From positions 96,001 to 160,000 of IMG/VR virus record IMGVR_UViG_3300037067_003400: 64,000 nt of DNA. One strand, written 5' to 3'. Origin of the DNA: a virus. Taxonomy: Duplodnaviria > Caudoviricetes. Each line of letters starts with the position of its first letter. Positions within the stretch are counted from its first letter, which is position 1. The position numbers and the translations under genes are program-made. The notes below the pieces were generated by a model. It saw only the letters and a list, made by a program, of their open reading frames with translations, searched no databases and had not been told where the DNA came from. Of the stretch, positions 28,648-46,876 are shown one piece after another.

Positions 28648-28654
28648 TGATAGT

Positions 28655-28681
28655 AAAAAAAAATGGGACACCGAAGTGCCC
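28655..28681 (-). terminator. intrinsic terminator for the minus-strand arm
   Basis: Minus strand GGGCAC-TTCG-GTGTCCC followed by A and T9. Confidence 0.7.
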
Positions 28682-28700
28682 CTAAGGTTGGAGGAAGTTT

Positions 28701-29120
28701 ATGGTAGGAAAAGTTCTTAATAAAATAGTAGAGTGGCATGATGATTTGTATGCTAAACATGAATTTAAAACCACTCCAGAAGAGCATTATGGTGGGCCTA
28801 AGGAATCTAATGGCCCACTATGGCAGTATATGCCTGAGGAATCTAAAGATACATTTATAAAAGTGTTTGGGTCTATATGGAATACATGTGTTGCTTTAGC
28901 TGAAGAAGAGGCAGCTAATAAGGCAGCTTTTGAAGCAGGAGAATGGAAGTATTTAGGATGTAGTGCTTATGCTATTATTGAGGTTCCTGGTAGTAACGAT
29001 ACTATTAAGATAACGACACCAGGTGTATCAGGTATACCATCTTCATCACCAGATGATTACCTTAAAGAAATAGAACGTAGCCAGATGGAGTTGCTGGAGT
29101 TAATGCTATCTTCTAATTAG
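28701..29120 (+). CDS. hypothetical protein, last gene of the + arm
   Basis: GGAGG SD; stop overlaps the convergent minus-strand ORF. Confidence 0.7.
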   Translation: MVGKVLNKIVEWHDDLYAKHEFKTTPEEHYGGPKESNGPLWQYMPEESKDTFIKVFGSIWNTCVALAEEEAANKAAFEAGEWKYLGCSAYAIIEVPGSNDTIKITTPGVSGIPSSSPDDYLKEIERSQMELLELMLSSN

Positions 29121-29356
29121 TTATATCCAAGCTGAGATAGGTAATCTTTATTTTTTAGTTGAGAATTAAGTTTCCTATCTTTAGCTTTCTTTTTAATGAG
29201 GTTGAATAAACACTGTATATCACAGAAGAGTATTCCTTTTTTTGAGGTTTTAGTAACAATTACCATAGAGGTATCGGGGTTAGGAAACTTTCCACAGTTG
29301 GCGCAGGTAGTGGCAGTATCGTAGATAGCTGTGATTTTAATAACATCATCTTGCAT
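29117..29356 (-). CDS. Zn-finger (TRASH-like) protein
   Basis: CANCGK...FCDIQC. Confidence 0.65.
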   Translation of the reverse strand: MQDDVIKITAIYDTATTCANCGKFPNPDTSMVIVTKTSKKGILFCDIQCLFNLIKKKAKDRKLNSQLKNKDYLSQLGYN

Positions 29357-32460: not shown

Positions 32461-32468
32461 ATTATCTT

Positions 32469-32636
32469 CTATTCATCTATTATTAATTCTTTGTTACATT
32501 TTATGCAGGTATATATTTTTTTAGTTTCTAATATTTCTAGGTTATGTTTAGTCTTCTTAGATTTCTGTATGGTAGCCACTTCTTTTACTTCGAAGTTATC
32601 TGGAGGTTTAAGCCCACACCCTGGGCAAGATATCAT
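32469..32636 (-). CDS. 55 aa Zn-ribbon protein (not in ORF track)
   Basis: Manual translation MISCPGCG...YTCIKCNKELIIDE. Confidence 0.6.
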   Translation of the reverse strand: MISCPGCGLKPPDNFEVKEVATIQKSKKTKHNLEILETKKIYTCIKCNKELIIDE

Positions 32637-32698: not shown

Positions 32699-33415
32699 TT
32701 ATTCCATTCTTTTCGTTCCCAGTTCTTTTTCTTTGCCATGTCTTATATAATCTGTATACATATTGTCATGAAATACGAAGACATCTGTGGTATAATCTAC
32801 TGGTTCTATAGGCCCTGCTACTTTAATGAGTCTCCTAAAGTAATCAGCATCTTTTGCAACAGCTAACTCTCTATCTTCAGCGGTAGGAAACTCTGTATCC
32901 CAGAGCCCTACTATATTAACAAGATACCTTCTATGCATTATCTGGTTATGATCTAACCAACAGAATGGGTCTGATACTGTACCATAGTTTCCTCTGAAGT
33001 TTACCCCATACCAAGGGGGGCTATTTATAATTTGTTGGTTGCCATAGCAAATACCTATTTCTGGGTTTCTGTCTAAATAGTTAGACATTACTTCAAGCTT
33101 TATATTTCTATAGTAGCAATCATCAGTTAAGTATGTAATGTAATTACTATACCCCTCCACTAAAGCTATATTTATCATATCTGCATAGCGCACTTTTAAA
33201 AGTCTTTCCTCTAATGTAGTGGTAGATATAATTAATTTAATTCTGTCATCAGAATTTGCAAACTTATGTAGGATCTCTTGTGTTTCATCATCACTATTGT
33301 CATCCATTATCCATAAAGTAAAGTCTTCCATAGTTTGTGTTAGTACTGACTTAATAGCTTTTGTAACCATCTTAGGTCTATTGTAACTTGTTAATATTAC
33401 ATCTACTTTACTCAT
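32699..33415 (-). CDS. GT2 glycosyltransferase (SpsA/CgeD-like)
   Basis: LTSYNR, MDDNS, YLTDD, LDHNQIMHR. Confidence 0.92.
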   Translation of the reverse strand: MSKVDVILTSYNRPKMVTKAIKSVLTQTMEDFTLWIMDDNSDDETQEILHKFANSDDRIKLIISTTTLEERLLKVRYADMINIALVEGYSNYITYLTDDCYYRNIKLEVMSNYLDRNPEIGICYGNQQIINSPPWYGVNFRGNYGTVSDPFCWLDHNQIMHRRYLVNIVGLWDTEFPTAEDRELAVAKDADYFRRLIKVAGPIEPVDYTTDVFVFHDNMYTDYIRHGKEKELGTKRME

Positions 33416-34373
33416 TATATACTACCTCACTTCTTATATCACTAAATTTAAAAGGTATCCTTACCCACGGGCTTAGTACACTATCTATTATATCCAAATA
33501 CTTAGGACTTGTAAACACTAAGAAGCTACCACCACACCCACCACCTAATAACTTTCCACCTAAAGCTCCTACTTTCTTTATCATAGTATACTTTTCATCT
33601 ATTTCTGGGAGTGTTATTTCCGAACTTACTTTCTTTTTAGCTGCCCAAGTTTTATCAAGCAAATAACCTACTCGGTCTATCTTATTATTCCAGATAGCTT
33701 CTTTAGCTTCAAGTGCTATCTCTTGTATATCTGTTACATATGTATTATCACACAGACTATTACTATATTGTTTAACTATATCACAAGAATTTCTTTGGAT
33801 ACCTGTATAGTATAGGTGTAGTTTTGATTCTAATTCTTCAACTCCAAAGTATCTTTCTCTTTTGTAACTTCCATCTGTATTTATATCTATAAAGTTTAAT
33901 CCTGAATTAGCTGCAAAGATTTGGTCTTGTATTCCACCAGGTTCTTTTAGTATATGTCGTTCTATCTCTATAGCTTCTTTTACTAATTGCTGAGTCATTA
34001 TAAAGTATTGTCTTTTATACCAGTGTAACGCATTTAGTAAACCTACTACAAAAGAAGAACTTGAACCTAACCCAGATCGGGACGGAAGATCCCCAGAATA
34101 AACTATTTCTAATCTATCAGTGATGCCTAAGTATTCTAAACATGCTTTTATAGCTGGGTGCTCTATATCGTCTACATTATCTACAAGTTCTATGTTTCTG
34201 TATGCTACTCTATAATTATTATTAAAAGCTTTGTTATAGGGTTTCACCATTATATAGCAGTAGTGGTTAATAGCTCCCCCTAATACGCATCCTCCATTTT
34301 TTTCGTACCAGTTTTCATAGTCTGTACATCCACCAAATAAGGATACTCTATAGGGAGTCTTACTTATTAACAT
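33408..34373 (-). CDS. hddA: GHMP sugar kinase, D-glycero-alpha-D-manno-heptose-7-phosphate kinase-like
   Basis: TPYRVSLFGGCTD, PSRSGLGSSS, GIQDQ, GGKLLGGGCGG. Confidence 0.88.
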   Translation of the reverse strand: MLISKTPYRVSLFGGCTDYENWYEKNGGCVLGGAINHYCYIMVKPYNKAFNNNYRVAYRNIELVDNVDDIEHPAIKACLEYLGITDRLEIVYSGDLPSRSGLGSSSSFVVGLLNALHWYKRQYFIMTQQLVKEAIEIERHILKEPGGIQDQIFAANSGLNFIDINTDGSYKRERYFGVEELESKLHLYYTGIQRNSCDIVKQYSNSLCDNTYVTDIQEIALEAKEAIWNNKIDRVGYLLDKTWAAKKKVSSEITLPEIDEKYTMIKKVGALGGKLLGGGCGGSFLVFTSPKYLDIIDSVLSPWVRIPFKFSDIRSEVVYNE

Positions 34374-35035
34374 AATAACTTTTGTGCCTCTCTATAAGAG
34401 TCTGGAGTGCCTATATCAATAAAGGATTCTTGACTATGATACCCATGTAAACATTTGCCAGCATTTATATAAGCAGGGAATATATCTCTTTCTAAAGAAG
34501 ATCTACCATCTGGTATAAAAGAAATGAACTCTGTATTAAGTATATAGATTCCAGCACTTATCCATCTTGATATTGGATTCTTCTCTACAAACTGAACTAT
34601 TCTATTTATATCAAGCACTACAGAACCATATCTACTTTCATCTTTAGCTTGTGTTAGTAGCATGGAACAACTATACTTTTTTCCCCAGTCCACATATTCT
34701 ATCAGGTTACCAAAATAGAAGGTATCCCCATTCATTACAATGAACTTATCATCTGTAATAAATTGTGCTGCATTCTTAACAGCTCCACCAGTTCCTAATG
34801 TCTCTTCTTCTACTATTACTTCTACCCCTGGGATATCTATAACCTGTCTACTTATTTCGTCGGCAAGGTACCCAGCTGCTACTACTATTTTTTCTATACC
34901 TATTTTTAATAGCTCATCTATATTACGCTGTAATACAGACCTTCCAGCTATAACAGTAGCACACTTCTGATGCTTCCCTATTGTTGGTTGAAGTCTCACG
35001 CCAGAACCACCAGCTAATATAATTGCTTGTTTCAT
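34367..35035 (-). CDS. sugar-1-phosphate guanylyltransferase (HddC-like)
   Basis: LAGGSGVRL, LGTGGA, NGDT, FIDIGTPDSY; adjacent to hddA. Confidence 0.85.
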   Translation of the reverse strand: MKQAIILAGGSGVRLQPTIGKHQKCATVIAGRSVLQRNIDELLKIGIEKIVVAAGYLADEISRQVIDIPGVEVIVEEETLGTGGAVKNAAQFITDDKFIVMNGDTFYFGNLIEYVDWGKKYSCSMLLTQAKDESRYGSVVLDINRIVQFVEKNPISRWISAGIYILNTEFISFIPDGRSSLERDIFPAYINAGKCLHGYHSQESFIDIGTPDSYREAQKLLC

Positions 35036-36129
35036 AATTCGAACCTTTCGAAGAATTTATTTAGTAGTACCTCCGAGGTTAGTTTTTCTTTTACTACATC
35101 TAAGGCATTAGCTGCTAAAGTATTTCTATAGTCTTGGTTATCTAATAGAGTAATACATTTTCTTACTTCTGTTGTATCTCCACTTATGATATGCGGGGGG
35201 TTATCATTATAAAGTAGTATATTTTTTTCATGTGTAAATGTAGCATTAGCCTCTGGTCTATCTGGAACTACCCAAGCTACTACAGGTACACCAGCAATCA
35301 TACTTTCTACTACTCTACTTGTATATCCTAAGAATGTAGATGGTAACCCAAGTACAGCTTTATACTGCCTCATCTCATTCATTAATACAGCTTCTACCCC
35401 AAGACGTATATCTCTATTTTCATCTATGTAGTTTCTCATTATTTTATTAGACATACTATTTGTTATGAATGCTCTACAAGTATTAGTTGCTAATCTATCG
35501 AATTGCTCTGGGAGAGTTGTTTTGTTCTCTGCTGGCTCTGGTATCTCAACTAAGTCCTTTAGTTGCTGTAACATAGAAGCTCTTCGTTGATACTGCTTTC
35601 CAAAGAACAAGCATTTATTTATTTTGTATGGCTTTATTTCTTTTACTAAAAACTTTTCTGGCATGTTGCAAGGAAACCACATAGTATTATTTATATTATG
35701 TGTTCCTAAAAGTTTTATATCATACTCATCTAATGGTAGTACATGTGTAATAAAGTTTAGTTTTCTTAATATATGCTCCATAGATAAACCATAGCATTGT
35801 GATGTAGTCATTGATTCTATCAAGTATGCTACACGTACTGGTATTAGGTCTGCTAATCCAGCTAATATTTGCTCACTTGCTCTTGCATGCATTAGTTCTA
35901 TAAACATCATATCAAACTTTATATCTTTATATAAATAGTTTACCCCATACACTACCCATTGATCTGGATTTATAGTACCATCTCCTTGGACTACTATAGT
36001 ATATACATTGTGCCCAAGTGCTTTTAGCCCGTCCTCTATAGCCCAGTTAGCAGTATAGGCTAATGGTCTCGACTGGTCCCATGTTGGTCTCTCAGTTATA
36101 ATAAGTAACACATTCTTAGAAGTTCCCAC
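35032..36129 (-). CDS. GT-B glycosyltransferase (CgeB-like)
   Basis: FFGKQYQRR, SRVVESMIAG, TLAANA pattern. Confidence 0.7.
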   Translation of the reverse strand: MGTSKNVLLIITERPTWDQSRPLAYTANWAIEDGLKALGHNVYTIVVQGDGTINPDQWVVYGVNYLYKDIKFDMMFIELMHARASEQILAGLADLIPVRVAYLIESMTTSQCYGLSMEHILRKLNFITHVLPLDEYDIKLLGTHNINNTMWFPCNMPEKFLVKEIKPYKINKCLFFGKQYQRRASMLQQLKDLVEIPEPAENKTTLPEQFDRLATNTCRAFITNSMSNKIMRNYIDENRDIRLGVEAVLMNEMRQYKAVLGLPSTFLGYTSRVVESMIAGVPVVAWVVPDRPEANATFTHEKNILLYNDNPPHIISGDTTEVRKCITLLDNQDYRNTLAANALDVVKEKLTSEVLLNKFFERFEL

Positions 36130-37045
36130 GGTGCTCCTCTCCTATTATAGAATAAGCAGTGATAAGTTCTTCTATTCCAGTATCTAAACTACGTTGTGCC
36201 TTGAATCCTTTGTTAGCTAACTTAGTAGAAGATACAATATAATTCCTTTTATCTGGGTCTCTCTTTTCTGTGTTAGTAGTTATCTTAAATGATGGTATGT
36301 GTTCTTTTACTTTGTAGGCAAGGTCTATCTTTGACATATTTATATCATCATTACCCAGGTTGTATACATTATTTTTTACAATGTCATAATTATTTATGCA
36401 GTAGCTAAAACAATCTGCTACATCCTGGATATGTACATAGTTTCTCATGAAGTGCCCTTCGAATATATCAACACCTTTATTAAAGACTGCTTTCCTTACG
36501 AAGTCATTAACTAATAAATCTGTTCTCATTCTCTGGGATACTCCAAATACTGTAGCAAGTCTTAGTACTACACAATTTGTACATTCTACTATAGCATATT
36601 CTGCACACATTTTTGTTTTACCATAGTGCGTAATTGGTTCTAAGCAAGTTTCTTCTGTACATAGTAAACTTCCATCTGTATTTCCGTAACCGCTATTAGT
36701 GTTAGGGAATATAAGCAGCTGGTCTTTACTTTTAATAGATACTATATTTTCTATTACCTTTGAATTTACTATATGAGCTTCGTCTTTGTGTTTGTCACAT
36801 ATTCCTGCACCTACGTATGCTGCTAATGGTATAATCACATCTGATTGTTCTACTAATTTGTCTAAAGTATTATCTACTACTGACATCTTAGCAAAGGCAA
36901 AGCTCTCTCTACCACATAAATGAAGTAAACTATCCTGATTGTAAAGTAGGTTGTCTACTACAGTTACATAGTGCCCCTCATCTAATAATGTTCGTGTTAG
37001 TACCGAGCCTATATAGCCAGCCCCCCCAGTTATAAGTACTCGCAT
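36116..37045 (-). CDS. NAD-dependent epimerase/dehydratase/reductase (extended SDR)
   Basis: TGGAGYIG, YGKTK, LRLATVFG. Confidence 0.95.
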   Translation of the reverse strand: MRVLITGGAGYIGSVLTRTLLDEGHYVTVVDNLLYNQDSLLHLCGRESFAFAKMSVVDNTLDKLVEQSDVIIPLAAYVGAGICDKHKDEAHIVNSKVIENIVSIKSKDQLLIFPNTNSGYGNTDGSLLCTEETCLEPITHYGKTKMCAEYAIVECTNCVVLRLATVFGVSQRMRTDLLVNDFVRKAVFNKGVDIFEGHFMRNYVHIQDVADCFSYCINNYDIVKNNVYNLGNDDINMSKIDLAYKVKEHIPSFKITTNTEKRDPDKRNYIVSSTKLANKGFKAQRSLDTGIEELITAYSIIGEEHRGNF

Positions 37046-37401
37046 AGTCCAACGTTCCTTTCAGGAGAAATAGCAATAGCCATATCCTCAGTACCATCTG
37101 GTTTCTTATCATTAACTACTATCCTTGGTCCTCTGGGTAGTCCCATTATAAGCATGTCGTATTGAATATGATGGTCTGATAGTAATTGTACAGTTTTCTC
37201 TCTATCAGATTCTTTCCTACCAGTAGTTATTATAATCTTGTAGTTTAATAGGGCATATTTTTCTATGAATTCTCTGACTCCATTTAATAGCCATATTGGT
37301 ACAACATTCTTTGGTGTACCATGTACTTGCCATTCATAGTTACCTGTATGATACAGTAATGTGCCATCTATATCTAAGAATAAAGTTCCTGGATGTTCCA
37401 T
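37030..37401 (-). CDS. small HAD phosphatase
   Basis: DIDGT, TTGR, VNDK. Confidence 0.85.
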   Translation of the reverse strand: MEHPGTLFLDIDGTLLYHTGNYEWQVHGTPKNVVPIWLLNGVREFIEKYALLNYKIIITTGRKESDREKTVQLLSDHHIQYDMLIMGLPRGPRIVVNDKKPDGTEDMAIAISPERNVGLCEYL

Positions 37402-38135
37402 TATGTCCTCCTGTTAATTTCTGCTTCTACTGCAGTCCTTAACTTTATTATATCGTTAATTCTATTTTCTGTATACCATTTATAGTAAGCATCTTGCTGG
37501 TCGTTGTATACTTTATTTTGATGATAGTGAGTTGGGTCTCCCCAATGCCTCTTGTATGTTTCATCAAACTCTGATTTATTAGAAGTAGATGCTATAAAAT
37601 GATTATGATTAATTATTACATCTGGTACGTATATGTATAGTCCTAATGGTTCTGTAATATCTTTTAGTATATGATCTTGGAATAGGTGCATTACATCTGG
37701 GTTATGTATCCATCCTATTGTCTTTATAAATCTATAACCAACCATTGGAACTACACAAAGATAATTCCCATGGTATCCGTCACTTGGAAACACTACCCCC
37801 CAGTAACCTATCTCCTTCATAGCATCAAGTAAAATAGTATCCCAGTTTTTAGTTAGTATAGCGTTGTCGTCTGCCAATAAAGTAAAGGCTACATATTTAT
37901 TTATATTTTTATGACATACTTCATTCATCATTACTGGAACTGTTTTATTATCAAAGACTTCATAAGTTACTTTTGTTTTATCAAGAACTTCTTTGTAGTT
38001 GTCTACATCATCACTATCTAATAGAACTACTATATCAGTCATATCTGAAGTAGTTTCCTTTATGTTATTAAGAAGTTCTTCTAACTTATTGGGCCTTCCT
38101 CTTGATGGTATTAAAGCTAATATTTTTTCTTCCAT
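37401..38135 (-). CDS. GT-A/GT2-like glycosyltransferase
   Basis: IPSRGRP, DSDD, LADD, HLFQD, HNH. Confidence 0.8.
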   Translation of the reverse strand: MEEKILALIPSRGRPNKLEELLNNIKETTSDMTDIVVLLDSDDVDNYKEVLDKTKVTYEVFDNKTVPVMMNEVCHKNINKYVAFTLLADDNAILTKNWDTILLDAMKEIGYWGVVFPSDGYHGNYLCVVPMVGYRFIKTIGWIHNPDVMHLFQDHILKDITEPLGLYIYVPDVIINHNHFIASTSNKSEFDETYKRHWGDPTHYHQNKVYNDQQDAYYKWYTENRINDIIKLRTAVEAEINRRT

Positions 38136-39292
38136 TATATAGCACTCAACTTAATAGCAAGGTCTACTATCTTTTCTGCTTCTAATCCTGGGTAGTTGCC
38201 AATGTAGAAGCCATACTTATGCACGTGCTCCACGTTCTTATACTCCCAGTACTTGAATTTATATTCTGACAGGTAAGGTTGTCTTAGTTGGTTACCACCA
38301 CCAGACATACCACGTCTATATTCTATACCTTCATCTTGTAGTAGCTTAATTGTTTTAGCGAGTAGTTCATCATTAGGTTCCCTTAATAGTAAAGTAAAAG
38401 CATAATTAGAGCAACCTTCTAATTTATAATCAGTGTAGAACTTATCTGAGTTTAAGTTATCTAAGAATAGTTTAAGATTCTTATTTCTAAGCTTTATGTT
38501 CTTATCTAAGTATTGTAATTGTGAAAGTCCTAAGATAGCATTGAGTTCAGTTGATCTCATGTTATATCCAGTAACTGGAAATATAAATTCAGGATGTAAC
38601 TCTGGGAAATCTTTTTCGTAAGCTGCCTTGAGACTATCAGATGTACTTTCACGTAGCATACCATGAGATCGAAGCATTCTTGCTGCATCAATGATAATTG
38701 GCTCCCTTGAAGATATCATACCGCCCTCTATTGTGCTCATATGATGCGCAAAGTAGAAAGAAAAGTTAGATACACTTCCAAAGGTTCCTACTTTCTTTCC
38801 ATTCATAGTAGCACCATGACTCTCACAAACATCTTCAACTAAATAGGTATCTATCTTATCTAAGAACCAAGGCTCTAATGCATTGTATCCTAAAATATGT
38901 GTCAAGAGTATGGCTATTGTGTCATTAGTTTGTGCAGCTATTACTTTGTGTAAATCTAAACCAAGTGTAGTAAGGTCTATGTCTACAAAGATGGGCGTAA
39001 ACCCATTACGTATTACAGATGTAACATCGGATACCCAATTCAAAGGAGAGAGTATTACTTCTCCACCTTTTGGGTAAGCTTCTCGTAGTATGCTAAACGT
39101 AATCATATTAGCTGAAGCTCCAGAGTTAACCATTACATTATAGGGTGTGCCTAACCAATTACCCCAAGCCCCTTCAAACTCTTTTACTTTAGGACCATTA
39201 GTGAGTCTAGGGTCTTCCTGCTTTAGATATTTGATTAAAGTATTAATATCTTTTCTTGTTATGTTACTTCTCATTAATGGCCACGTTAGCAT
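38135..39292 (-). CDS. PLP-dependent DegT-family enzyme, ColD/E1-type 3-dehydratase-like
   Basis: VNSGASAN, EDVCES, SFYFAHHMSTIEGG (His where aminotransferases have Lys). Confidence 0.88.
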   Translation of the reverse strand: MLTWPLMRSNITRKDINTLIKYLKQEDPRLTNGPKVKEFEGAWGNWLGTPYNVMVNSGASANMITFSILREAYPKGGEVILSPLNWVSDVTSVIRNGFTPIFVDIDLTTLGLDLHKVIAAQTNDTIAILLTHILGYNALEPWFLDKIDTYLVEDVCESHGATMNGKKVGTFGSVSNFSFYFAHHMSTIEGGMISSREPIIIDAARMLRSHGMLRESTSDSLKAAYEKDFPELHPEFIFPVTGYNMRSTELNAILGLSQLQYLDKNIKLRNKNLKLFLDNLNSDKFYTDYKLEGCSNYAFTLLLREPNDELLAKTIKLLQDEGIEYRRGMSGGGNQLRQPYLSEYKFKYWEYKNVEHVHKYGFYIGNYPGLEAEKIVDLAIKLSAI

Positions 39293-40002
39293 GTGACAAA
39301 CTCCTTACTTTTAACATTGCCTGTGTCAACCCAATTTGGAAAAGCTCGTGTATATATAGGTATATTCATATGCTCATAGATATCAGTATCGCATGGAGAT
39401 ACTATATTACTTTTTAGTAATTGTTCTGTAGCTTTCCAGAAGGTAGTATAATCATGTATATATGATAGAGCTATATAAGTATCCATATGAGAGTTAACAC
39501 AAGGGTATGTTTTGCTTAGTATTTGTTGTAATAATCCTTTATCATCCTTTATTACTTTAGAGTAGTTACAGTCTACCTCTACATTACATATCCCTATCCA
39601 ATTACGATATACACTTTCTCCTTCGAGAAGAAGTTCTGGTATAACATGTTTGTTAGGAAGTGTATCACAAGAGTTAAAGAAAAAGGGGCATTGTAATTTA
39701 TCTTTAGCACAATTAAGGCTATATGCTAACCCAGACCCCACATCATTATAATTATCTACTTCTACAAATGTAATATCTCTATGTGCATAATTTTTTAGTA
39801 AATAAGTTTTTACTTGGCTACCACACCATCCTAATGTAATTACTATAGAAGTATCTTTATTATAACTGTCTATTATAGAATCTATTATTATTTTTCCATT
39901 TACTTTTAATAAAGCTTTATTGGTAGATTTTGTTAGTTCACCTAATCTACTTCCTATTCCAGATGTTGGTATTAGTAATTTATAATTCATAGTAATTACC
40001 AT
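39286..40002 (-). CDS. nucleotidyltransferase (NTP_transferase / LicC-like)
   Basis: IPTSGIGSRL..LT...KALL, SCDT, WVDTGN. Confidence 0.85.
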   Translation of the reverse strand: MVITMNYKLLIPTSGIGSRLGELTKSTNKALLKVNGKIIIDSIIDSYNKDTSIVITLGWCGSQVKTYLLKNYAHRDITFVEVDNYNDVGSGLAYSLNCAKDKLQCPFFFNSCDTLPNKHVIPELLLEGESVYRNWIGICNVEVDCNYSKVIKDDKGLLQQILSKTYPCVNSHMDTYIALSYIHDYTTFWKATEQLLKSNIVSPCDTDIYEHMNIPIYTRAFPNWVDTGNVKSKEFVTC

Positions 40003-41024
40003 CCATGTGTTAGTCTATCTATTGTTACTTCTAAACTATTGTTTGCTTTGTTAGCATTTAAAATACTTGCTGTTTCAATAGCTTTAGTTATTGTAGCAAT
40101 AACTTCTTGCTTATCTACTATATTAGGTATGGAAAACATACTTTCATTAGTTACTCCTCCGCCAATGTGACTAAAGAATATAGACATATCTAAATCTGAT
40201 GCCATCTTTATAAGATCTTCTACTTGTTTATAAGTAGACTTCATTATAATAGAATTTATATTAAGTCTCCAGTTAGGATGTAGCTTTGCAGTTTCACTTA
40301 ACACTTTTAAATTCGAGTACAATTTATCCCAGGAAAAATGTCTTATGCTTTCATAAGTTTCTTTCATACCATCTACTCTTACAGTAATGAATAGGTTATC
40401 TATCTTTTCAAGTGTTTCTAAATTTTCTGGGATAAGAGTTCCGTTAGTTGTTAAATAGATACATGTTCCTTTAGTGTCTTCTTCGGAGACTAACTTTAAT
40501 AAGTCTTTACCATCAGGACTTACAAAAGATTCTCCACCTATAAAACCGAAGCGGTCTAATTTTTCCCAGCCTATTTCATGTACTACATTAATTATGTTTT
40601 CCACAGGAAATAGCTTTGTTGCTCTTCTATCCCTTGGGCACATCTTACAAGATAGATTACATATCTCAGAATGTGCTACATACAATTCTATAGGAGGGTG
40701 TTTTAATGTTACCATACCATACTGATATTCTTTATTGACAGTGTTAAAATACTCTATTGTTTCTTGTGTCTTGTTAATAGAGAATAGTGGTATGTTTTCT
40801 CCAATACCTAATATGTCATGATGATTATTATATTTTTGGTTTGGGCAGTTAGAACATTTATTTAGTCTTAGGTTCTTATATGTAGGCCCATTCCAAATTC
40901 TCATTACTTCTTCTAATGATTTTGGTGTAAGTCCAAATTGTATATTGGAATGGTAGCAACAAGGGCCACCTGTATTATTAATAGTCATGGATAATGTAGT
41001 CCATGGAAAAGAACAACTTATCAT
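39996..41024 (-). CDS. radical SAM enzyme with N-terminal SPASM/twitch domain
   Basis: CSFPW..PCC..WNG..CSNC, then CNLSCKMC, GGE, TTNG. Confidence 0.9.
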   Translation of the reverse strand: MISCSFPWTTLSMTINNTGGPCCYHSNIQFGLTPKSLEEVMRIWNGPTYKNLRLNKCSNCPNQKYNNHHDILGIGENIPLFSINKTQETIEYFNTVNKEYQYGMVTLKHPPIELYVAHSEICNLSCKMCPRDRRATKLFPVENIINVVHEIGWEKLDRFGFIGGESFVSPDGKDLLKLVSEEDTKGTCIYLTTNGTLIPENLETLEKIDNLFITVRVDGMKETYESIRHFSWDKLYSNLKVLSETAKLHPNWRLNINSIIMKSTYKQVEDLIKMASDLDMSIFFSHIGGGVTNESMFSIPNIVDKQEVIATITKAIETASILNANKANNSLEVTIDRLTHGW

Positions 41025-41923
41025 TTTATATCCTTTAGTTTATTTTCTATATCATTCCAAAATGTATTAGGTGATGCAATAGCTGGTAGTTTTGTGTATC
41101 CATTTTTTTGTATTGTAGTTAGTAAGGTGCTATCATTTACATATGTAACAAGTTCATTAATATTATTAAATGCTATATAATCTACCATTGGTTTTAGAAA
41201 CTTCTCAGTAAAACTACATTGAGGTTCTGCCAATACTGTACCGCACATTAGTACTTCTGATACCCTACCTTTCCTATGTGGTATGTTATCGCATGCCCAT
41301 GGAAAGTTTAAAGCTATCTTTGATCTTTGTAGTATATTAGCATAGGTTTCTATTGGCTTTAGCCCATCTCTTTTTCTATCTGATATTAATACGTTTAAGT
41401 TGTTATCTAAGTTTTTTAAAATACTAAACCTATCTTCTCGTATACTTCCTACAAAACTTATATCTATATCTTTTTCAACATTTATAGGTTGAAAATATTG
41501 TTGTGAGTGTGGGTGTGTTGTAAATAATACTCTACCCGGTTTCTTAGCTATTTTCTCATAATCAGGGTTATCCATTACTATTACACAATCACATAAGCTT
41601 TCTAACATTTTTGCTTGTTTTATATTTTCATCTGAAATAGAATCCCATACTATTCCAAAGGTTGGTATACCATAATTTTTTCTTACTCTTACTATATTTA
41701 CTGGTTTATATGGGTAGTGTGAGTACACTATCGTATCTGGTTTAAAATTTTCACAGGCCTCATTAATTTTTGTTATATAATCTTCTGCTTCATCATAAAA
41801 TATAGTATGTATTTCCAAGCCAGCTACAGTAGTGGCTGGTTGATAGATAGCTAAGTATGGTGTGGATAGCATACTATTTCTATTACAGTCTGTATATTTA
41901 TCTAATATTAATAAGGCCTTCAT
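41021..41923 (-). CDS. GT-B glycosyltransferase (CgeB-like)
   Basis: DIDISFVGS..R, SKIALNF, KGRVSEVLMCG. Confidence 0.85.
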   Translation of the reverse strand: MKALLILDKYTDCNRNSMLSTPYLAIYQPATTVAGLEIHTIFYDEAEDYITKINEACENFKPDTIVYSHYPYKPVNIVRVRKNYGIPTFGIVWDSISDENIKQAKMLESLCDCVIVMDNPDYEKIAKKPGRVLFTTHPHSQQYFQPINVEKDIDISFVGSIREDRFSILKNLDNNLNVLISDRKRDGLKPIETYANILQRSKIALNFPWACDNIPHRKGRVSEVLMCGTVLAEPQCSFTEKFLKPMVDYIAFNNINELVTYVNDSTLLTTIQKNGYTKLPAIASPNTFWNDIENKLKDIK

Positions 41924-41926
41924 ATA

Positions 41927-43699
41927 TTAATCTACTATTATGTTAGCTTCGTACTCATCCCTTGGAAGTTTAGGAGCCTGGTCATGTATTGGTGTGCCCC
42001 AACCTAATTTAGGTGAGTACTCATAAAAGTCTTTCATATCTAAGTTGATTACTACTGGTCCTACCATTTCAAGTATCTCAGGTAGATACTCTAACTCTTT
42101 ATGATTAGCAAGTGTTACCGTCTTTAATCCAAAAGCTTTAGCTACTTTTACTACATCTGGGAATGCAAGCCCATGATCAGTATCGGCTCCAGCAAAGTTA
42201 CTATCACAGTTTGTTTGTCTAAAAGCATGTGTGATCCCATAACCACTGTTGTTGTAAATAAACAATTTAACATTTAGGTTCTTCATATTAAGAGTTGCAA
42301 GTTCCTGTATGTTAAAGTTTAAACCCCCATCTCCATTTAGACAAATGACTCTTTTACCAGTTGCAATAGCTGCCCCTATAGAAGCAGGTAGAGCATACCC
42401 TAGTGAAGCATTACCGTTGTTAGCAAATAGAATCTGTCCTTCCTTTGCCTTAAATGCTTGTGCTGTAGTGACACCATTTCCACCAATATCTGTCACAATA
42501 ATATCATCTTTAGAAAGTACTTTAGATAATTCCTCTATGAATACATATGGATTAATATGTTCTTTCTGCTCATAGTATTTAGGTAATACCACTGGGTACT
42601 TCGCCTTCCACTCTTTTACTTTGTCTACCCACCATTGTATAGATGGTACTTTAATTTCTACTGCGTTCATTGTCTTCACAAATGTTTTAGCATCTGAGAC
42701 TATTGGGATATCTGGTGTTACCATATTATATCTTAGTTCTGCCTCATCTACATTTACAAAGACTTTCTTTGCATTCTGAGCAAACGTAGGTACTTCCCCT
42801 CCCGTAATCCTTCCAGAAATTCTTGAGCCAATAGCAATAAGTAAATCAGAATTTTGTATGCCAAAGTTTCTACCGTCTCCTCCGAATGTTCCAACTCTTC
42901 CGCCGAATAATGGGTGTGTGTCATCACAGAAGTCTACTGCATTCCAGGTTTCAAAGAAAGGTATGCCCCATTTTTCTATAAGGTCTAATACTTCTCTCTT
43001 ATTCCACTTTACACCACCACCTACTAATATAGCTGGTCTCTTAGAGTTTTCTATGAACTCTTTTATTTTATCTATATCCTTTTTAGAGATTTCATAGTTA
43101 GGTTCTGGTGACATAGTATAGAAACCACTTACTGGGTATGTTCCGGTTTCTGTAAAGTGGAGTCCAAAGAGTGTGAAGTCATATATATCTTGATGCTGTA
43201 TATTCATTGGTATATCTAACAGCACTGGGCCAGGTCTTCCTTCTTGTGCTATTCTCCAGGCTTTTTCTAACTCTTCTTTGATGTCATCTTTCTTTTTAAT
43301 CTGCACAGCATACTTAGTAATTGGTTCCACTATAGAAACTACATCAGTTTCCTGGAATCCTACCTGTCTGAGTTTAGGATTAGTATTTATAAAGTTAGAG
43401 TTAATTTGTCCTGTTAAGAATATAGCTGGTGTGCCATCATAATAGCATGTGGCTATTCCAGTTACTAAGTTCTCTGCTCCAGGTCCTGAAGTTGCAATCA
43501 TAACTGACATTCTACCAGAAGCTTTCTGGTAACCATCAATCATAAATGCTCCTGCCTGTTCATGTAATGGACAGTGATATGGCAGTCCTGCATCAGCTAC
43601 TGCACATATTAAGTGAGCACATGCTGCGCCATCAATTAAGAAAACATCCTTGATTTCTTTTTCTTTTAAGAAACCTGCTACGTAATTTGCTACTTTCAT
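41927..43699 (-). CDS. thiamine-diphosphate-dependent enzyme, acetolactate-synthase fold (YerE-like candidate)
   Basis: HEQAG, TSGPG, GFQETD, GRPGPV, GDGG...NN; located inside a sugar operon. Confidence 0.92.
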   Translation of the reverse strand: MKVANYVAGFLKEKEIKDVFLIDGAACAHLICAVADAGLPYHCPLHEQAGAFMIDGYQKASGRMSVMIATSGPGAENLVTGIATCYYDGTPAIFLTGQINSNFINTNPKLRQVGFQETDVVSIVEPITKYAVQIKKKDDIKEELEKAWRIAQEGRPGPVLLDIPMNIQHQDIYDFTLFGLHFTETGTYPVSGFYTMSPEPNYEISKKDIDKIKEFIENSKRPAILVGGGVKWNKREVLDLIEKWGIPFFETWNAVDFCDDTHPLFGGRVGTFGGDGRNFGIQNSDLLIAIGSRISGRITGGEVPTFAQNAKKVFVNVDEAELRYNMVTPDIPIVSDAKTFVKTMNAVEIKVPSIQWWVDKVKEWKAKYPVVLPKYYEQKEHINPYVFIEELSKVLSKDDIIVTDIGGNGVTTAQAFKAKEGQILFANNGNASLGYALPASIGAAIATGKRVICLNGDGGLNFNIQELATLNMKNLNVKLFIYNNSGYGITHAFRQTNCDSNFAGADTDHGLAFPDVVKVAKAFGLKTVTLANHKELEYLPEILEMVGPVVINLDMKDFYEYSPKLGWGTPIHDQAPKLPRDEYEANIIVD

Positions 43700-45144
43700 C
43701 TATTGAGCTCCCGTTGTGTAAGTTGTTTTACATTTTCAAATATTGTTTCCCCAAACTTATCTTTAATCATATTAAGATAGTCTGGGTTTCTAAAGTATAT
43801 ATTAAAAGCTTTGTCTCTAAACTTTACCACTTTTTCTCCAGAGAGATGTTTAGTAGGTAATGGCTTTGAATATTTAGAGTATTGTGTATATCCTTCCCAT
43901 GACTCTGGGAGGTTTTCCTTTGGTGTGTCCTCATAGAGTTTACTACCTGGGTAGGCCATGGCACAATTAAAGTTAGCCCACTCTGCATTGATGTCTATAG
44001 CCATATCAAGAGTAGCTTGCATAGTTTTATAGTTATCTTCTGGTAGCCCAAAGATGTAGTTTGCACATATATAGGCGCCTGTGTCTTGTAGAATTTTTAC
44101 ACCCTTCTTTATTTTATCTAAAGAAGATTTCTTATTTACATCTGCAAGTACTACTTCACTACCAGACTCTATACCAATGGCAAACCATTTAATACCAGCC
44201 TTAATTAATTTCTTTGTAAGTTCTTCATTTAAGGTATCTAATCTTGCATATGCCCAGAAGTTAATATTATAATTTCTTTTTATAAGCCCATCACAGATAT
44301 CATTGATTCTTTTAGTATCCATTACAAATAGCTCGTCTGCTATCTTTATATTCTTTATGCCATATTTTTTATGGAGTACATCTATCTCTCTTAGTACCCA
44401 ATCTGCAGAGAAGGTTCTATAAGAAGGTCTTGTCATTCCACGTGTATACTCTCCTTCTTTAAATGGAGCTTGTATACAGCAGAAGCTACAAGACATAGGA
44501 CATCCTAAAGATGTATAGATAGACGCATACGAATTGATAGTATCTGGATTCTCGAAACAATGCCAGTTGTGTGCTCTATACTTAGTCATGTCTAATAGGT
44601 GCCACGGTAATGAAGGGTATACTTCATCTAAGTTTTCTATAAGAGCTGCTGTGCATCTAGAAGAACATGTGTCACCAAATCTATTAATATATATAAGCCC
44701 AGGAACATTAGTTATATCTACACCATTTAATAGTGCAGCTATAGTTATTGGTCCTTCTCCTGTGCAGCAGTAGTCTGCTTTAGTTTCTAATAGTGACTTT
44801 CTTGGTAAAGCAGCTATGTGCCCCCCAACAAGTAGCACCTTTATCGAGCCTCCCAGTTGTTGTACTAATTCTTTTGTGTAAGGCATCAACTGAGTAGATG
44901 CAGATGGGTTATGTCCATATACTACAATTACTACCAGCTTTGGGTTTATGTCTGTTATCTTAGCAGCACAAGTTGCTGGGTCATAGTTGTTAGCATGTGC
45001 ATCTATTATTTGTACAGTGTGCCTATTCTTAAGTATATTAGATGCAAGCATGAGACACCAGATAGGCGGTTCTTTAGCCATTAGGTCATGAGCTAAATTG
45101 TCATACATCTTAGTTGCATTTGGATTTACTAAAACTACATCCAC
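43696..45144 (-). CDS. cobalamin-dependent radical SAM enzyme (class B methyltransferase-like)
   Basis: N-terminal B12-binding domain (GGH, GEG), SLGCPMSCSFC, GIESG, IFGLP, YPGS. Confidence 0.93.
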   Translation of the reverse strand: MDVVLVNPNATKMYDNLAHDLMAKEPPIWCLMLASNILKNRHTVQIIDAHANNYDPATCAAKITDINPKLVVIVVYGHNPSASTQLMPYTKELVQQLGGSIKVLLVGGHIAALPRKSLLETKADYCCTGEGPITIAALLNGVDITNVPGLIYINRFGDTCSSRCTAALIENLDEVYPSLPWHLLDMTKYRAHNWHCFENPDTINSYASIYTSLGCPMSCSFCCIQAPFKEGEYTRGMTRPSYRTFSADWVLREIDVLHKKYGIKNIKIADELFVMDTKRINDICDGLIKRNYNINFWAYARLDTLNEELTKKLIKAGIKWFAIGIESGSEVVLADVNKKSSLDKIKKGVKILQDTGAYICANYIFGLPEDNYKTMQATLDMAIDINAEWANFNCAMAYPGSKLYEDTPKENLPESWEGYTQYSKYSKPLPTKHLSGEKVVKFRDKAFNIYFRNPDYLNMIKDKFGETIFENVKQLTQRELNR

Positions 45145-45743
45145 TGGATTTCTCCGTTACGAACTACATCCCAGACATTAATTAGAACTCCAATACCACA
45201 GTGACACTGATTAGGTTCACTTATAAATTCTTTGTATTCAAACTTATCTTTGTATTCATTCCAGAATAAATCTACTTTACAGAACTCTCCTTGATGTAGG
45301 TGTGGTAGTATGTCATGAAATACTACCAGCCCATCCTTTGCTACTAATGGTCCATACATTAGAAAGTCTTGTTCTATTCCTTTATGTGTATGGTCACCAT
45401 CTAAGAAGATGAAGTCATATTCTGGAGAGAACTTCTTTATAGTTTCAAGAGTTCCTGGGTTATGTGAGTCCGCCTGAAGAAAATGAAAGTCTATATCAAA
45501 GTTCTTTACTGTATTTTCATGTAGTCTATTCTTCTTTATATCACAGGCTATCACAAGTGCTCCAGGCTGTGAGTGTTTAGCCCACTGGAATAGTGTGCCA
45601 CCCTGGTCAGTGCCTACTTCTAATACTCTTGTTGGTTTTAGTTCTTGATACATGTGTAACAAAGCTTCAAACTCTTCCTTCATTTGATAAGGCATAACAT
45701 ATTGAGGACAGTCTGGATCTTTGAATGTATACTCTATAACCAT
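45135..45743 (-). CDS. class I SAM-dependent methyltransferase (Methyltransf_24-like)
   Basis: LEVGTDQGG, FLDGDH, VFHD; start probably at the second Met, coupled to the upstream stop. Confidence 0.9.
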   Translation of the reverse strand: MVIEYTFKDPDCPQYVMPYQMKEEFEALLHMYQELKPTRVLEVGTDQGGTLFQWAKHSQPGALVIACDIKKNRLHENTVKNFDIDFHFLQADSHNPGTLETIKKFSPEYDFIFLDGDHTHKGIEQDFLMYGPLVAKDGLVVFHDILPHLHQGEFCKVDLFWNEYKDKFEYKEFISEPNQCHCGIGVLINVWDVVRNGEIQWM

Positions 45744-46141
45744 TAGGCATCCCCACAAATACAAGCTAATATATCTATAGATACTTCGTTGCTATTACTA
45801 ACACATAGCACATCTTTCATTTCTGGAAACTGATTATGTAAAGCCACAACCTTACACTCTTCTGGTAATAGTCCCATGTTCTTAGCACAGGTAGCTAATA
45901 CATACTCATAACTACTTGTTTCTACACTTGACACGATACTATTAACTAAATGATTTATATTTAGTTTATTAATTATATTTTGCATTACTCCTAAAGGTTC
46001 TTTAGAGTATACACATTTCTGTAATCCAAGCAAAGCAAGTTCTATAAAGAGTCTTGACTTATCTTTATTTTCTTTTATCTCAGATATATTAACAGGTATA
46101 TCTGTTATAGTATCTAATCCAAAGATTACTCCCTTAATCAT
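45743..46141 (-). CDS. degenerate HAD-fold protein
   Basis: IKGVIFGLD (first Asp replaced by Gly), MGLLPEEC. Confidence 0.55.
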   Translation of the reverse strand: MIKGVIFGLDTITDIPVNISEIKENKDKSRLFIELALLGLQKCVYSKEPLGVMQNIINKLNINHLVNSIVSSVETSSYEYVLATCAKNMGLLPEECKVVALHNQFPEMKDVLCVSNSNEVSIDILACICGDA

Positions 46142-46779
46142 TTTTTCCCTCCAAGCTGTTTTACTGGTACAGCTTTTTTAATAAGTTCCTCAAAGTTTTT
46201 GTTATTGTTATCTGTCATCCCATAATGTAAGTTTAGTATTTCACCGTCAGCTATTCTTCCTTGTGCGGCAGGGTCTGGGGTACATAATTTCCTATCACTA
46301 CTTAGATTGATTCTTAATGTAGATGAAAAGATTATTGGCTTAGAATCTAAAGCAAAACAAACACCCTCCTTATAGACATTATATATCATCTTGTCTATGG
46401 GGGGTGTTACGTCACTAACCATTTCATATTGTGTTGGCTTTATTATTGTTGCGCCGAGTTGCTGATGCCTTCTTAATCTTTTTAGTAGGTCTTTGTGAAA
46501 AATAAACTCATTAGGCTCTGTTACTATAACCCAGTCTACAGCTTTAGAATGTATTTGATACATTGTGTTCATTAAGTTTGTTATAGTTTGCTCATTTATA
46601 GTGTTTAGTTTTACATTCTTTAAAATTGCATTAGGATATTGAGCAACTAAGTCTACTATGTTGTCTGTAGAATCTGCATCAAATATGAACATCTTTTCAG
46701 TAAACTTGCTATAATGCCTAAGCCACTGCTCTAACATAGCAGCATTGTTGTAGCAATGCGTATATGCATGAACTATCAT
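46138..46779 (-). CDS. GT2-like protein with degenerate DxD motif
   Basis: CYN..ML..WLRHY, DADSTD, WVIVTEPNEF, LHY. Confidence 0.7.
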   Translation of the reverse strand: MIVHAYTHCYNNAAMLEQWLRHYSKFTEKMFIFDADSTDNIVDLVAQYPNAILKNVKLNTINEQTITNLMNTMYQIHSKAVDWVIVTEPNEFIFHKDLLKRLRRHQQLGATIIKPTQYEMVSDVTPPIDKMIYNVYKEGVCFALDSKPIIFSSTLRINLSSDRKLCTPDPAAQGRIADGEILNLHYGMTDNNNKNFEELIKKAVPVKQLGGKK

Positions 46780-46810
46780 TAATTGTCCTCCAACAAGAAT
46801 AAAATTTATT

Positions 46811-46828
46811 CTCTAATTATATTATACA
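46811..46828 (-). promoter_or_regulatory. putative promoter of the glycan operon
   Basis: Minus strand TGTATAATATAATTAGAG, downstream of the helicase terminator. Confidence 0.55.
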
Positions 46829-46837
46829 AATTGACAC

Positions 46838-46868
46838 AAAAAAATTCCAGTATTAACATACTGGAAAT
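46838..46868 (-). terminator. intrinsic terminator after the helicase gene
   Basis: Minus strand TTCCAGTAT..ATACTGGAA followed by a T-run. Confidence 0.7.
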
Positions 46869-46876
46869 AAATGTTG

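Follow-up and report, generated by a model that had tools for sequence, protein, structure and literature searches.

A sixteen-gene operon of a large tailed phage predicted to make a branched, methylated heptose and to transfer it by soluble glycosyltransferases

Introduction

Which sugar would a tailed phage build with sixteen consecutive genes, and what would that sugar be attached to? The question is raised by an operon at 32699-46779 (minus strand) of a 64,000-nt stretch of the IMG/VR record IMGVR_UViG_3300037067_003400. This whole stretch is called the window in the following, positions are given in its numbering unless another sequence is named, and the analysis was computational throughout. 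The genome of the phage (G000) is a single IMG/VR record of 210,951 bp with a CheckV completeness of 98%. Its viral nature was borne out by genes for a large terminase, a DNA polymerase, a clamp loader, a sliding clamp and a UvsX-like recombinase. We propose, with moderate confidence, that the operon turns heptose into a nucleotide-activated sugar that is branched at C4 and methylated, and that the soluble glycosyltransferases (GTs) encoded with this pathway would deliver the sugar to a non-lipid acceptor, likeliest a structural protein of the phage.

Results

Architecture of the operon

All 16 open reading frames (ORFs; g1 to g16 in the direction of transcription) were intact in the ORF listing. 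At 14 of the 15 junctions the neighbouring genes share 1-22 nt, and the remaining one is a 3-nt gap (from g1 to g16: -4, -22, -10, -4, +3, -4, -7, -7, -1, -1, -16, -14, -4, -7 and -8 nt), and this near-continuous overlap argues for translational coupling of all 16 genes. An earlier description of the stretch, made from its letters alone (the sequence-only reading), had recognised a tightly overlapping operon of 14 genes. The tight overlap stands and the count has to be raised to 16, which is also what the functions listed in that description add up to. Searches against Pfam and NCBIfam bore out all of its domain calls: five GT-like proteins (g1, g6, g10, g13 and g16), two nucleotidyltransferases (g14 strong, g8 weak), two HAD-fold proteins (g11 clear, g2 by look-alikes), a GHMP kinase, a short-chain dehydrogenase/reductase (SDR), a DegT-family protein, a thiamine diphosphate (ThDP) enzyme, a methyltransferase, a B12 radical S-adenosylmethionine (SAM) enzyme and a SPASM/twitch radical SAM enzyme. 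The GC content of the operon is uniform and the same as that of its flanks, and a hydrophobic stretch of transmembrane strength was found in none of the 16 proteins.

A predicted route to a branched heptose

As starting material we propose D-glycero-D-manno-heptose 7-phosphate, which GmhA of the host would provide. Its phosphorylation at C1 would fall to g15 (33408-34373, on the minus strand like all genes of the operon), a 321-aa HddA-like GHMP kinase (NF049969, 1.1e-35). HddA is the top NCBIfam family of g15 by 17 orders of magnitude, at 123.7 bits against an equivalog cut-off of 600, and the closest solved structures are the heptose kinases 3K85 (6.3e-28) and 4N3O. The 7-phosphate would then be taken off by g11 (37030-37401), a small HAD phosphatase of 123 aa (PF03767, 3.5e-07; PF25109) that has an intact DxDGT motif, matches generic HAD families only and is predicted to play the role of GmhB. 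Finally, g14 (34367-35035; 222 aa; PF00483, 1.8e-29) resembles sugar-1-phosphate guanylyltransferases of the HddC/ManC type, with matches to ManC-type NF052502 (2.9e-35) and to HddC NF049965 (1.9e-25; 89.8 bits against a cut-off of 300) that both lie below cut-off. Together, g15, g11 and g14 point to GDP-heptose as the activated precursor. GmhA itself (PF13580, SIS_2) was not found in the 98%-complete genome, in a search whose control was positive in 9 of 14 genomes. The heptose 7-phosphate must therefore be host-derived, and the operon is not self-contained as had been claimed.

The next two enzymes belong to a core of four (g12, g9, g5 and g4). g12 (36116-37045; 309 aa) is a Cj1427-like SDR that aligns over its full length (residues 2-304) with PDB entry 6VO6 at about 55% identity (6VO6/6VO8, 2.5e-84). 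In the alignment it carries the YxxxK motif (YGKTK), and T-N-S replaces the T-D-E of 4,6-dehydratases. With this combination the enzyme should oxidise C4 and leave the C6 hydroxyl in place, which makes g12 a putative GDP-heptose C4 dehydrogenase and not a 4,6-dehydratase. g9 (38135-39292; 385 aa; PF01041, 3e-57) is a ColD-type 3-dehydratase dependent on pyridoxal or pyridoxamine phosphate (PLP/PMP), with matches to RfbH in NCBIfam (3.1e-55) and to the ColD structures 2GMS and 3GR9 (3e-47). Its His-His aligns with the pair of ColD, at the position of the PLP lysine; the H188N entry 3B8X deviates at the first His. A His is also kept at the PLP-lysine position in 132 of the 136 DegT neighbours of YerE-like genes. 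The [2Fe-2S] site of E1/RfbH consists of four Cys. g9 has two Cys only, measures 385 aa against the 437 aa of E1, and has no reductase gene as a possible E3 partner among the 16 operon ORFs; these features assign it to the ColD subtype, for which E3 is not needed. Using PLP and glutamate, g9 would strip the 3-hydroxyl and give GDP-3-deoxy-4-keto-heptose.

Cj1427 and the C3-dehydratase of Campylobacter jejuni HS:5 turn GDP-heptose into GDP-3-deoxy-4-keto-heptose in vitro, in a reaction that needed 2-oxoglutarate, PLP and glutamate and was called an artificial combination (PMC10680097). The phage appears to encode this pair of a Cj1427-type enzyme and a 3-dehydratase naturally. Cj1427 binds NADH tightly and uses a ping-pong mechanism with 2-oxoglutarate. 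As g9 would release 2-oxoglutarate and a Cj1427-type enzyme consumes it, the two steps may be coupled via their co-substrate.

The resulting 4-keto sugar would be the substrate of g5 (41927-43699; 590 aa), a YerE-like carboligase made up of three ThDP domains, whose GDG motif (G456-D457-G458) is invariant in the homologue alignment. Its best solved relatives are 8RPH (9.6e-88, 298 bits) and 5AHK (1.2e-80, 275 bits), with acetolactate synthases at no more than 244 bits. 8RPH belongs to the work on JanthE (PMC12188165), and JanthE and PpYerE are the solved structures of the ketone-accepting YerE-like group, whose enzymes branch 3-deoxy-4-keto sugar nucleotides (PMC12247030). By these comparisons g5 would group with the ketone-accepting YerE/JanthE enzymes and add a carbon branch, an acyl or hydroxyalkyl group donated by a 2-keto acid, at C4 of the sugar. 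The fourth core gene, g4 (43696-45144; 482 aa), encodes a cobalamin-binding class B radical SAM enzyme (PF02310 at residues 25-138, PF04055 at residues 210-381) with a CxxxCxxC motif (CPMSCSFC). Its best NCBIfam match is HpnJ (1.2e-40, far under the cut-off), and in viral and cellular loci its gene often directly adjoins the ThDP gene. g4 would most likely be a C-methyltransferase, the alternative being other chemistry as in HpnJ, BchE or AprD4-like enzymes. The predicted steps from the kinase g15 to the carboligase g5 rest on strong or specific homology together with conserved gene linkage, and we regard a pathway up to a YerE-type branched heptose derivative as probable.

Tailoring enzymes and glycosyltransferases

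For the steps beyond the branch, and likewise for which 2-keto acid serves as donor and what the acceptor would be, our assignments are inferred. The product would be tailored by g4, by g7 and by g3. g3 (45135-45764; 209 aa) is a SAM methyltransferase of the CmcI/rhamnosyl-O-methyltransferase type (PF13578, 2.4e-13; PF04989, 2.6e-10; NF045824, 4.2e-12, below cut-off) with a 53% identical copy in G001, one of two related phages described below, and would act as an O-methyltransferase. g7 (39996-41024; 342 aa) is a radical SAM protein (PF04055) with an N-terminal twitch/SPASM-type Cys domain (PF13186 at residues 4-61) and a match to NF033640 below cut-off (2e-24). A search of 1.84 billion representatives gave 24 relatives at E<=1e-30, and the family shares the motif CxxPW..G...PCC...CxxC. 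In a fold search BlsE, SuiB, SkfB, viperin, MoaA and DesII all reached TM-scores of about 0.45-0.5. In two distant relatives (P0125 and P0132) a g7-type enzyme is fused behind a g6-like PF13524 GT. Together with the 4-nt overlap of g6 and g7 in the phage, these fusions suggest joint action of the two enzymes. Many other g7 relatives carry 150-450 extra residues, and a PDB sequence search with two such long relatives (P0127 and P0140) gave no usable match.

Two further proteins have less defined roles. g2 (45743-46141; 132 aa) matches no Pfam or NCBIfam family, and its assignment as a short HAD-fold protein comes from HAD look-alikes by features and structure (TM-score 0.86). The nucleophilic Asp of motif I is replaced (FGLDT), which makes g2 probably not a phosphatase. 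g8 (39286-40002; 238 aa) is a divergent second sugar-1-phosphate nucleotidyltransferase (PF12804, 6.8e-4, below cut-off; weak NCBIfam matches to GlmU-N, AglF and MurU) that would activate a second sugar; a 30% identical homologue is fused to an APH-type kinase in G002, the other related phage.

The glycan itself would be assembled in the cytoplasm by the five GTs. g1 (46138-46779; 213 aa) is a soluble GT-A type enzyme (Glyco_tranf_2_4; PF13704, 5.9e-11) without a detected homologue in G001 or G002. g6 (41021-41923; 300 aa) is a soluble GT of the CgeB type (PF13524, 1e-05); G001 has four paralogues of it in tandem, and G002 has two. Its nearest atlas clusters are mostly viral, and among its structural neighbours are fusions of a PF13524 protein with Maf_flag10_N or YkvP_N. 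Maf is a domain of flagellin glycosylation and YkvP_N is known from the spore-coat protein CgeB. g13 (35032-36129; 365 aa; PF13524, 1.2e-4, below cut-off) is of the same type and has a copy in G001; a PDB sequence search gave no usable match for g6 or g13. g10 (37401-38135; 244 aa) is a weak GT-A-like protein (PF00535, 0.0092, below cut-off) with copies in G001 (38% identical) and G002 (30%) and homologues in 12 viral loci, and g16 (32699-33415; 238 aa; PF00535, 2.9e-19) is a soluble GT2. An own multi-step nucleotide-sugar pathway with soluble GTs, all of it cytoplasmic, supports in part the earlier suggestion that the phage builds its own complex, probably C- and O-methylated glycan in the cytoplasm.

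The operon in related phages and other viruses

Is this operon a peculiarity of one genome? G001 (216,899 bp) and G002 (142,839 bp), whose terminases are 50-52% identical to that of the present phage, carry it at the same site, between a RecU/GroES/sigma block and a DnaB-like helicase. Both keep g3, g4, g5, g6, g9, g10, g11, g12, g14 and g15, and differ in gene order and extra genes. The copies of g12 in the two genomes are 56-64% and those of g4 44-47% identical, and g11 is 58% identical in G001 and 48% in G002. The island of G001 comprises about 24 genes, among them the four tandem g6-type GTs, four more SDRs, an RmlC-like epimerase, a second methyltransferase and a HAD protein. That of G002 has about 30, including the two g6-type GTs, the APH-kinase/g8-like fusion, a class I/II aminotransferase, a methyltransferase, a SPASM protein and an SDR. 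Within this phage lineage the operon forms a glycan island whose site stays the same and whose gene content varies. The terminase matches of these relatives come in two pieces (G001:C1:102768-105320 and G002:C1:129300-131936; ORFs of 889 and 937 aa), which points to an inserted element, an intein or another, that the 553-aa terminase of the present phage lacks.

An alignment-based scan revealed 132 IMG/VR contigs with a YerE-like gene; a scan of viral contigs with g5 as a single sequence had given no match. The best 80 of the 132 and one locus found via g4 (L001) were examined as 81 viral loci. Homologues of g5 were present in 80 of 81, of g9 in 66, of g12 in 47 and of g4 in 38, and all four core genes occurred together in 23 of 80. 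With G001 and G002, these loci show that the core genes recur in other viruses. HddA-like kinases were found in 14 viral loci and HldE-like PfkB/cytidylyltransferase genes in 24, with both in a single one. This either/or of kinases, together with GmhA genes in seven cellular cassettes, indicates that heptose is the common precursor. The carriers include unrelated large tailed phages: G003, G004, G005 and G016 were rated 100% complete, G016 has terminal repeats, and G003, G004 and G017 have Terminase_6N-type terminases. Close relatives of g4, g5, g6, g12 and g13 are absent from GenBank phage records. A search with the operon DNA against these records gave no match, and tblastn against GenBank phages gave none for g6 and g13 and at most 35% identity for g12, 31% for g5 and 24% for g4.

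A gene for a PanB-like hydroxymethyltransferase, which was not found in the present phage, occurs in 50 of the 81 viral loci and in only 5 of 80 cellular ones, often beside the YerE-like gene (for example L005:9170-9991, plus strand; PF02548, 3.9e-102). Its product may supply a hydroxymethylated 2-keto acid as donor for the branching enzyme. PanB-like genes and the B12 radical SAM gene are not mutually exclusive alternatives, as 23 loci hold both. L005 (IMG/VR; 130,604 bp, with a terminase and rated 100% complete) coincides in its DNA with L112, a contig of the Prochlorococcus single-cell genome AG-409-P03. A phage with this cassette was thus probably sampled together with a Prochlorococcus cell, within it or on its surface.

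Cellular relatives of the cassette

At least 568 cellular loci have a relative of the ThDP enzyme. In the 80 that were examined, the g5-type gene is paired with a dehydratase in 61, a g4 homologue is present in 40 and all four core genes in 30, chiefly in Nitrospira, a genus with cultured members, and also in Rhodospirillales, Saccharibacteria, Chloroflexota and a metagenome-assembled genome (MAG) of Methanoperedens. In all five Nitrospira genomes inspected (G006-G010; loci L104, L108, L111, L091 and L124) the cassette lies between two flagellin-family genes, each at a distance of no more than 10 kb. Flagellin glycosylation islands have this layout, and the Nitrospira cassette looks like an undescribed one. 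Two of the phage GTs recur there: modules resembling g13 and g16 are part of a multidomain GT of 1800-2200 aa that ends in TPR repeats. g13 matches its N-terminal module over the full length at 27% identity (L109 and L119; E 1e-38 to 1e-40), and g16 matches its GT2 module (E 5e-11). The giant protein has a GT-methyltransferase-GT-TPR make-up (L109:13566-20114), and other neighbours of the Nitrospira cassette are a PilZ/YcgR-type protein and a gene of the GT9 heptosyltransferase family.

In a quick FastTree phylogeny of 158 YerE-like proteins, the g5 of the window was sister to that of G001 (support 99), and both fell into a clade of six (support 99) with G002 and three MAG contigs assigned to Methanoperedens, Nitrospinota and Saccharibacteria. 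The tree requires at least ten switches between viruses and cells. We considered whether the closest MAG contigs (L087-L089 and L115) are mis-binned phage DNA and rejected this, as they have only the sugar genes in common with the phage and differ in GC content (0.36-0.58).

Candidate acceptors

To what would the glycan be transferred? Searches of the whole genome for PF02397 (Bac_transf), PF00953 (Glycos_transf_4), PF01943 (Polysacc_synt, Wzx) and PF01061 (ABC2_membrane) found none of these families; Wzy was not searched for. The absence of a flippase, an ABC exporter and a priming transferase, noted before for the operon, thus extends to the entire genome. PF00303 (ThyA-family), PF12851 (Tet/JBP) and PF00145 (C5-methyltransferase) were likewise not found in the 98%-complete genome, which has ThyX. 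As the phage has neither genes for a lipid carrier or export nor a known way of putting hydroxymethyl-pyrimidines into its DNA, we lean slightly towards a protein as the acceptor. The flagellin genes around the Nitrospira cassette and the Maf-fused structural neighbours of g6 point in the same direction. Flagellin is glycosylated in the cytoplasm without need of a lipid carrier, and the protein later self-assembles outside the cell. Virion proteins would offer the same situation, and a virion protein is our tentative choice. The earlier idea that a virion protein or DNA is likelier than a lipid-linked O-antigen holds insofar as the lipid-linked machinery is absent; DNA turned out to be a poor candidate.

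The main rival of a modified phage protein is that the same sugar pathway remodels the host surface. The soluble GTs would then modify flagellin, pilin, the S-layer, the lipopolysaccharide (LPS) core or a lipid-linked intermediate that the host exports, and so block superinfection or keep progeny off cell debris. Cellular homologues do serve cell-surface structures, for example in the Nitrospira flagellin islands, and peripheral GTs without transmembrane segments can use lipid-linked acceptors. The location among replication genes would fit early or middle expression, and the absence of GmhA implies a host that already produces heptose glycans. However, no flippase, exporter or priming enzyme was found in the genome, nor a polymerase, though no search was aimed at Wzy. 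Moreover, a large phage that replicates with its own machinery has only a limited time in which to benefit from resurfacing a cell that it will soon lyse. The variation of the GT set among close relatives fits a virion-exposed glycan equally well. We therefore consider host remodelling unlikely, while taking it more seriously than the explanations that follow.

Quite improbable, in our view, is that the operon yields a soluble product only, a modified nucleotide sugar or small glycoside. As a metabolic sink it would drain the heptose of the host and so stop the synthesis of LPS or the S-layer; otherwise it would inhibit or signal. Such a product would agree with the draw of the phage on the host pool of heptose 7-phosphate and with radical SAM and ThDP chemistry, which is typical of natural-product sugars; BlsE, the nearest fold to g7, is an enzyme of nucleoside-antibiotic synthesis. 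Five GTs, with up to four tandem g6-type copies in a relative, nevertheless argue for an oligosaccharide on an acceptor, and the cellular homologues are embedded in glycoconjugate loci.

Could the glycan sit on phage DNA, as an anti-restriction hypermodification like the glucosylation of T-even phages? Phage GTs related to LPS enzymes place hexose, N-acetylhexosamine, Kdo and heptose on 5-hydroxymethylcytosine (5hmC; bioRxiv 10.1101/2023.12.21.572611), and the operon does lie among replication genes. Yet the lack of a ThyA-family hydroxymethylase, a Tet/JBP protein and a C5 cytosine methyltransferase in the 98%-complete genome, the presence of ThyX and the location of the cellular homologues in surface-glycan and flagellin loci make this very improbable. 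Tet/JBP was also not found in 24 other cassette-bearing viral records, in a search of unproven sensitivity because the control genomes were silent too.

Finally, we give negligible probability to the idea that the block is a silent piece of host DNA, mis-assembled or captured of late. The closest cellular relatives of several genes do come from groundwater MAGs, but those loci share only the sugar genes and differ in GC content (0.36-0.58). The block agrees in GC content with the remaining phage DNA, has phage genes on either side within a single contig and consists of intact, overlapping ORFs, and the operon at the same locus of two related phages excludes such a fragment.

Flanking genes and further sugar genes

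The sequence-only reading had also placed the operon behind a promoter of its own. The upstream spacer (46780-46876, minus strand; 97 nt) contains a hairpin, TGTATAAT as an extended -10 box and, ahead of g1, the ribosome site GGAGGA. The hairpin (46866-46845; 9 bp followed by a T-run) is terminator-like and closes the helicase unit, and TGTATAAT comes after it. These elements speak for the claim, and statistics do not: in this AT-rich DNA sigma-70-type sites were not above shuffled sequences (63 found against 72.6 expected), and TGTATAAT was not enriched as a recurring motif. A separate promoter for the operon is plausible.

The flanking genes proved to be as described before, with a DnaB-like helicase upstream and RecU, GroES and a sigma-70-region-4 protein downstream. 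The helicase (46877-49270, minus strand) is split by an intein with a LAGLIDADG domain (Intein_splicing, 2.1e-21; LAGLIDADG_3, 8.2e-19). Between the operon and RecU lies a small Zn-ribbon-like ORF with two CxxC pairs (32468-32635, minus strand), which is preceded by a TGGTATAAT box of its own. Elsewhere in the window we noticed a small protein with a DnaJ-type CXXCXGXG zinc finger (52128-52508, minus strand).

GT genes at 20918 and 58218 and rmlA at 54073-54951, reported earlier as lying outside the operon, were all found again. The genome also encodes a 708-aa GDP-mannose-4,6-dehydratase-like SDR just before the window (L168:6688-8814, plus strand, corresponding to G000 92688-94814), whose Epimerase domain is halved by about 350 aa, probably through an intein-type insertion, and a further SDR of 339 aa near the terminase (G000 28212-29231). 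Two SDRs outside the operon, rmlA and the GT2 genes at 20918 and 58218 suggest that the phage owns at least one more sugar pathway. A protein with a GIY-YIG nuclease domain (59314-59964, minus strand), possibly a homing endonuclease, adjoins the outside GT2 gene.

Discussion

How does the predicted pathway relate to known systems? Its first half resembles the capsular GDP-heptose pathway of C. jejuni (Cj1423-Cj1430 of HS:2 and the C3-dehydratase of HS:5), whose HddA, HddC, Cj1427 and C3-dehydratase types of enzyme resemble those predicted for the phage (PMC10680097). In C. jejuni, however, the 3-dehydratase naturally follows a 4,6-dehydratase on the way to 3,6-dideoxy sugars, and its pairing with Cj1427 is artificial (PMC10680097). 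Moreover, the predicted 4-keto sugar of the phage would pass to a ThDP carboligase and radical SAM enzymes instead of a C4 reductase, and GmhA and the epimerase/reductase set are absent from the phage.

The second half recalls the yersiniose A pathway (DdhA-D, YerE and YerF) and the enzymes ErwE, MMAR_2332, PpYerE and JanthE (PMC12247030). As in the phage, an acetolactate-synthase-like ThDP enzyme accompanies a 3-dehydratase in which His has replaced the PLP lysine, and in both a 3-deoxy-4-keto sugar nucleotide should receive its branch at C4. The phage would differ in using a GDP-heptose that keeps its C6 hydroxyl in place of a CDP-3,6-dideoxyhexose, in having a ColD-type dehydratase without the Fe-S site of E1 or the E3 partner (DdhD), and in its tightly linked B12 radical SAM gene. 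The only SDR of the operon lacks the Asp-Glu pair of the dehydratases, and a YerF-type reductase is missing. Judged by its genes, the operon resembles the yersiniose pathway at the branching step and is not a member of it.

For the transfer of the sugar, the closest parallel may be flagellin glycosylation islands, such as that of Pseudomonas aeruginosa between flgL and fliC. Like the phage operon, they use soluble GTs and no lipid-carrier machinery, and the PF13524 GTs of the phage are structurally near Maf-fused GTs. The phage has no flagellin, so the likeness is one of working mode and not of membership. Giant viruses own an autonomous glycosylation machinery with nucleotide-sugar enzymes of their own and decorate structural proteins in the cytoplasm. 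Among mycobacteriophages, glycans have been described on capsid and tail-tube proteins (Freeman et al. 2023, as cited in PMC12619734). Viruses that glycosylate their virions use GTs of their own, as the present phage would. Mycobacteriophages carry a few GTs, which by the sequence-only reading work mostly with host sugars, whereas this operon has 11 non-GT genes, the majority of them for making or tailoring sugars and including a ThDP enzyme and two radical SAM enzymes, plus five GTs, and the islands of its relatives exceed 20 genes. Lastly, phage clusters for DNA glycans contain a C5-methyltransferase, 5mYOX and a GT, and heptose on 5hmC is among their products (bioRxiv 10.1101/2023.12.21.572611). 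They resemble the phage operon in GTs of LPS-enzyme ancestry and, in some, in a phage-encoded heptose kinase and nucleotidyltransferase, and they differ by their defining C5-methyltransferase with Tet-like oxidase or ThyA-like hydroxymethylase, which are absent from the phage. By its gene content, the operon is neither a lipid-linked O-antigen or capsule system nor a DNA-glycosylation system.

Several points weigh against a heptose pathway that serves a phage protein. On the side of the chemistry, every NCBIfam equivalog score is under its curated cut-off, g11 is very small and has no specific GmhB signature, and the heptose route leans on GmhA of the host. The roles of g2, g4, g7 and g8 are guesses, and the model of g7 (pLDDT 92.8) matches just the generic radical SAM core, with BlsE nearest at a TM-score of about 0.5, a loose placement. 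No YerF-type reductase and no second SDR lies in the operon to define the state of the branch. We take 6VO6 to be Cj1427, for which a literature search gave no confirmation; the structure reportedly stems from Huddleston et al. in 2020, a paper that PMC10680097 cites. Similarly, 5AHK is presumably PpYerE. On the side of the acceptor, the operon lies among replication genes and not among structural genes, no flagellin-family gene was found in the phage, none of the operon's GTs is similar to an enzyme proven to glycosylate virions, and the analysis yielded no candidate for the acceptor protein. Flagellin genes are not close to the cassette in Rhodospirillales and Terriglobia, so that the cassette by itself does not imply a protein acceptor.

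What, then, is new? The sequence-only reading had spoken of the strongest candidate for an undescribed system, which goes too far: each step has a characterised relative (Cj1427, ColD and YerE), and the core cassette is common in uncultivated viruses and cellular genomes. New would be the combination of a 3-deoxygenated heptose that retains its C6 hydroxyl with a ThDP-dependent branch of the YerE type and radical SAM tailoring. New as well is its presence in phages as a conserved and fast-changing island of 16 to about 30 genes, and its recurrence in many uncultivated viruses. A bolder idea, which we hold to be rather doubtful, is that unrelated lineages of large phages share an undescribed cassette, made up of heptose activation and the four core enzymes, for 3-deoxy-4-C-branched, C-methylated heptoses. 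In the lineage of the present jumbo phage, fast-evolving soluble GTs, with a GT and twitch radical SAM pair that occurs as a fusion in relatives, would coat virion proteins with the sugar, much as flagellin is glycosylated, and this would be the bacteriophage counterpart of the giant-virus machinery. To our knowledge, sugars of this class have not yet been reported from nature, and we know of no phage sugar pathway that is more elaborate.

If the proposal of a branched heptose on a phage protein is true, phages make an exotic branched sugar through ThDP-dependent formation of a C-C bond and two radical SAM enzymes. A review of 2025 names viruses merely as unexplored ground for YerE-like enzymes (PMC12247030), and our findings would extend enzymes of this type to viruses. 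They would also give a natural setting to a compound that so far has been made only by mixing enzymes in vitro (PMC10680097). The link to Nitrospira flagellin may offer a tractable way to the product of the shared core. The variable set of glycan genes at a fixed locus suggests selection on an exposed glycan, and such selection would bear on the stability of the virion, on host recognition and on the evasion of defences or grazers.

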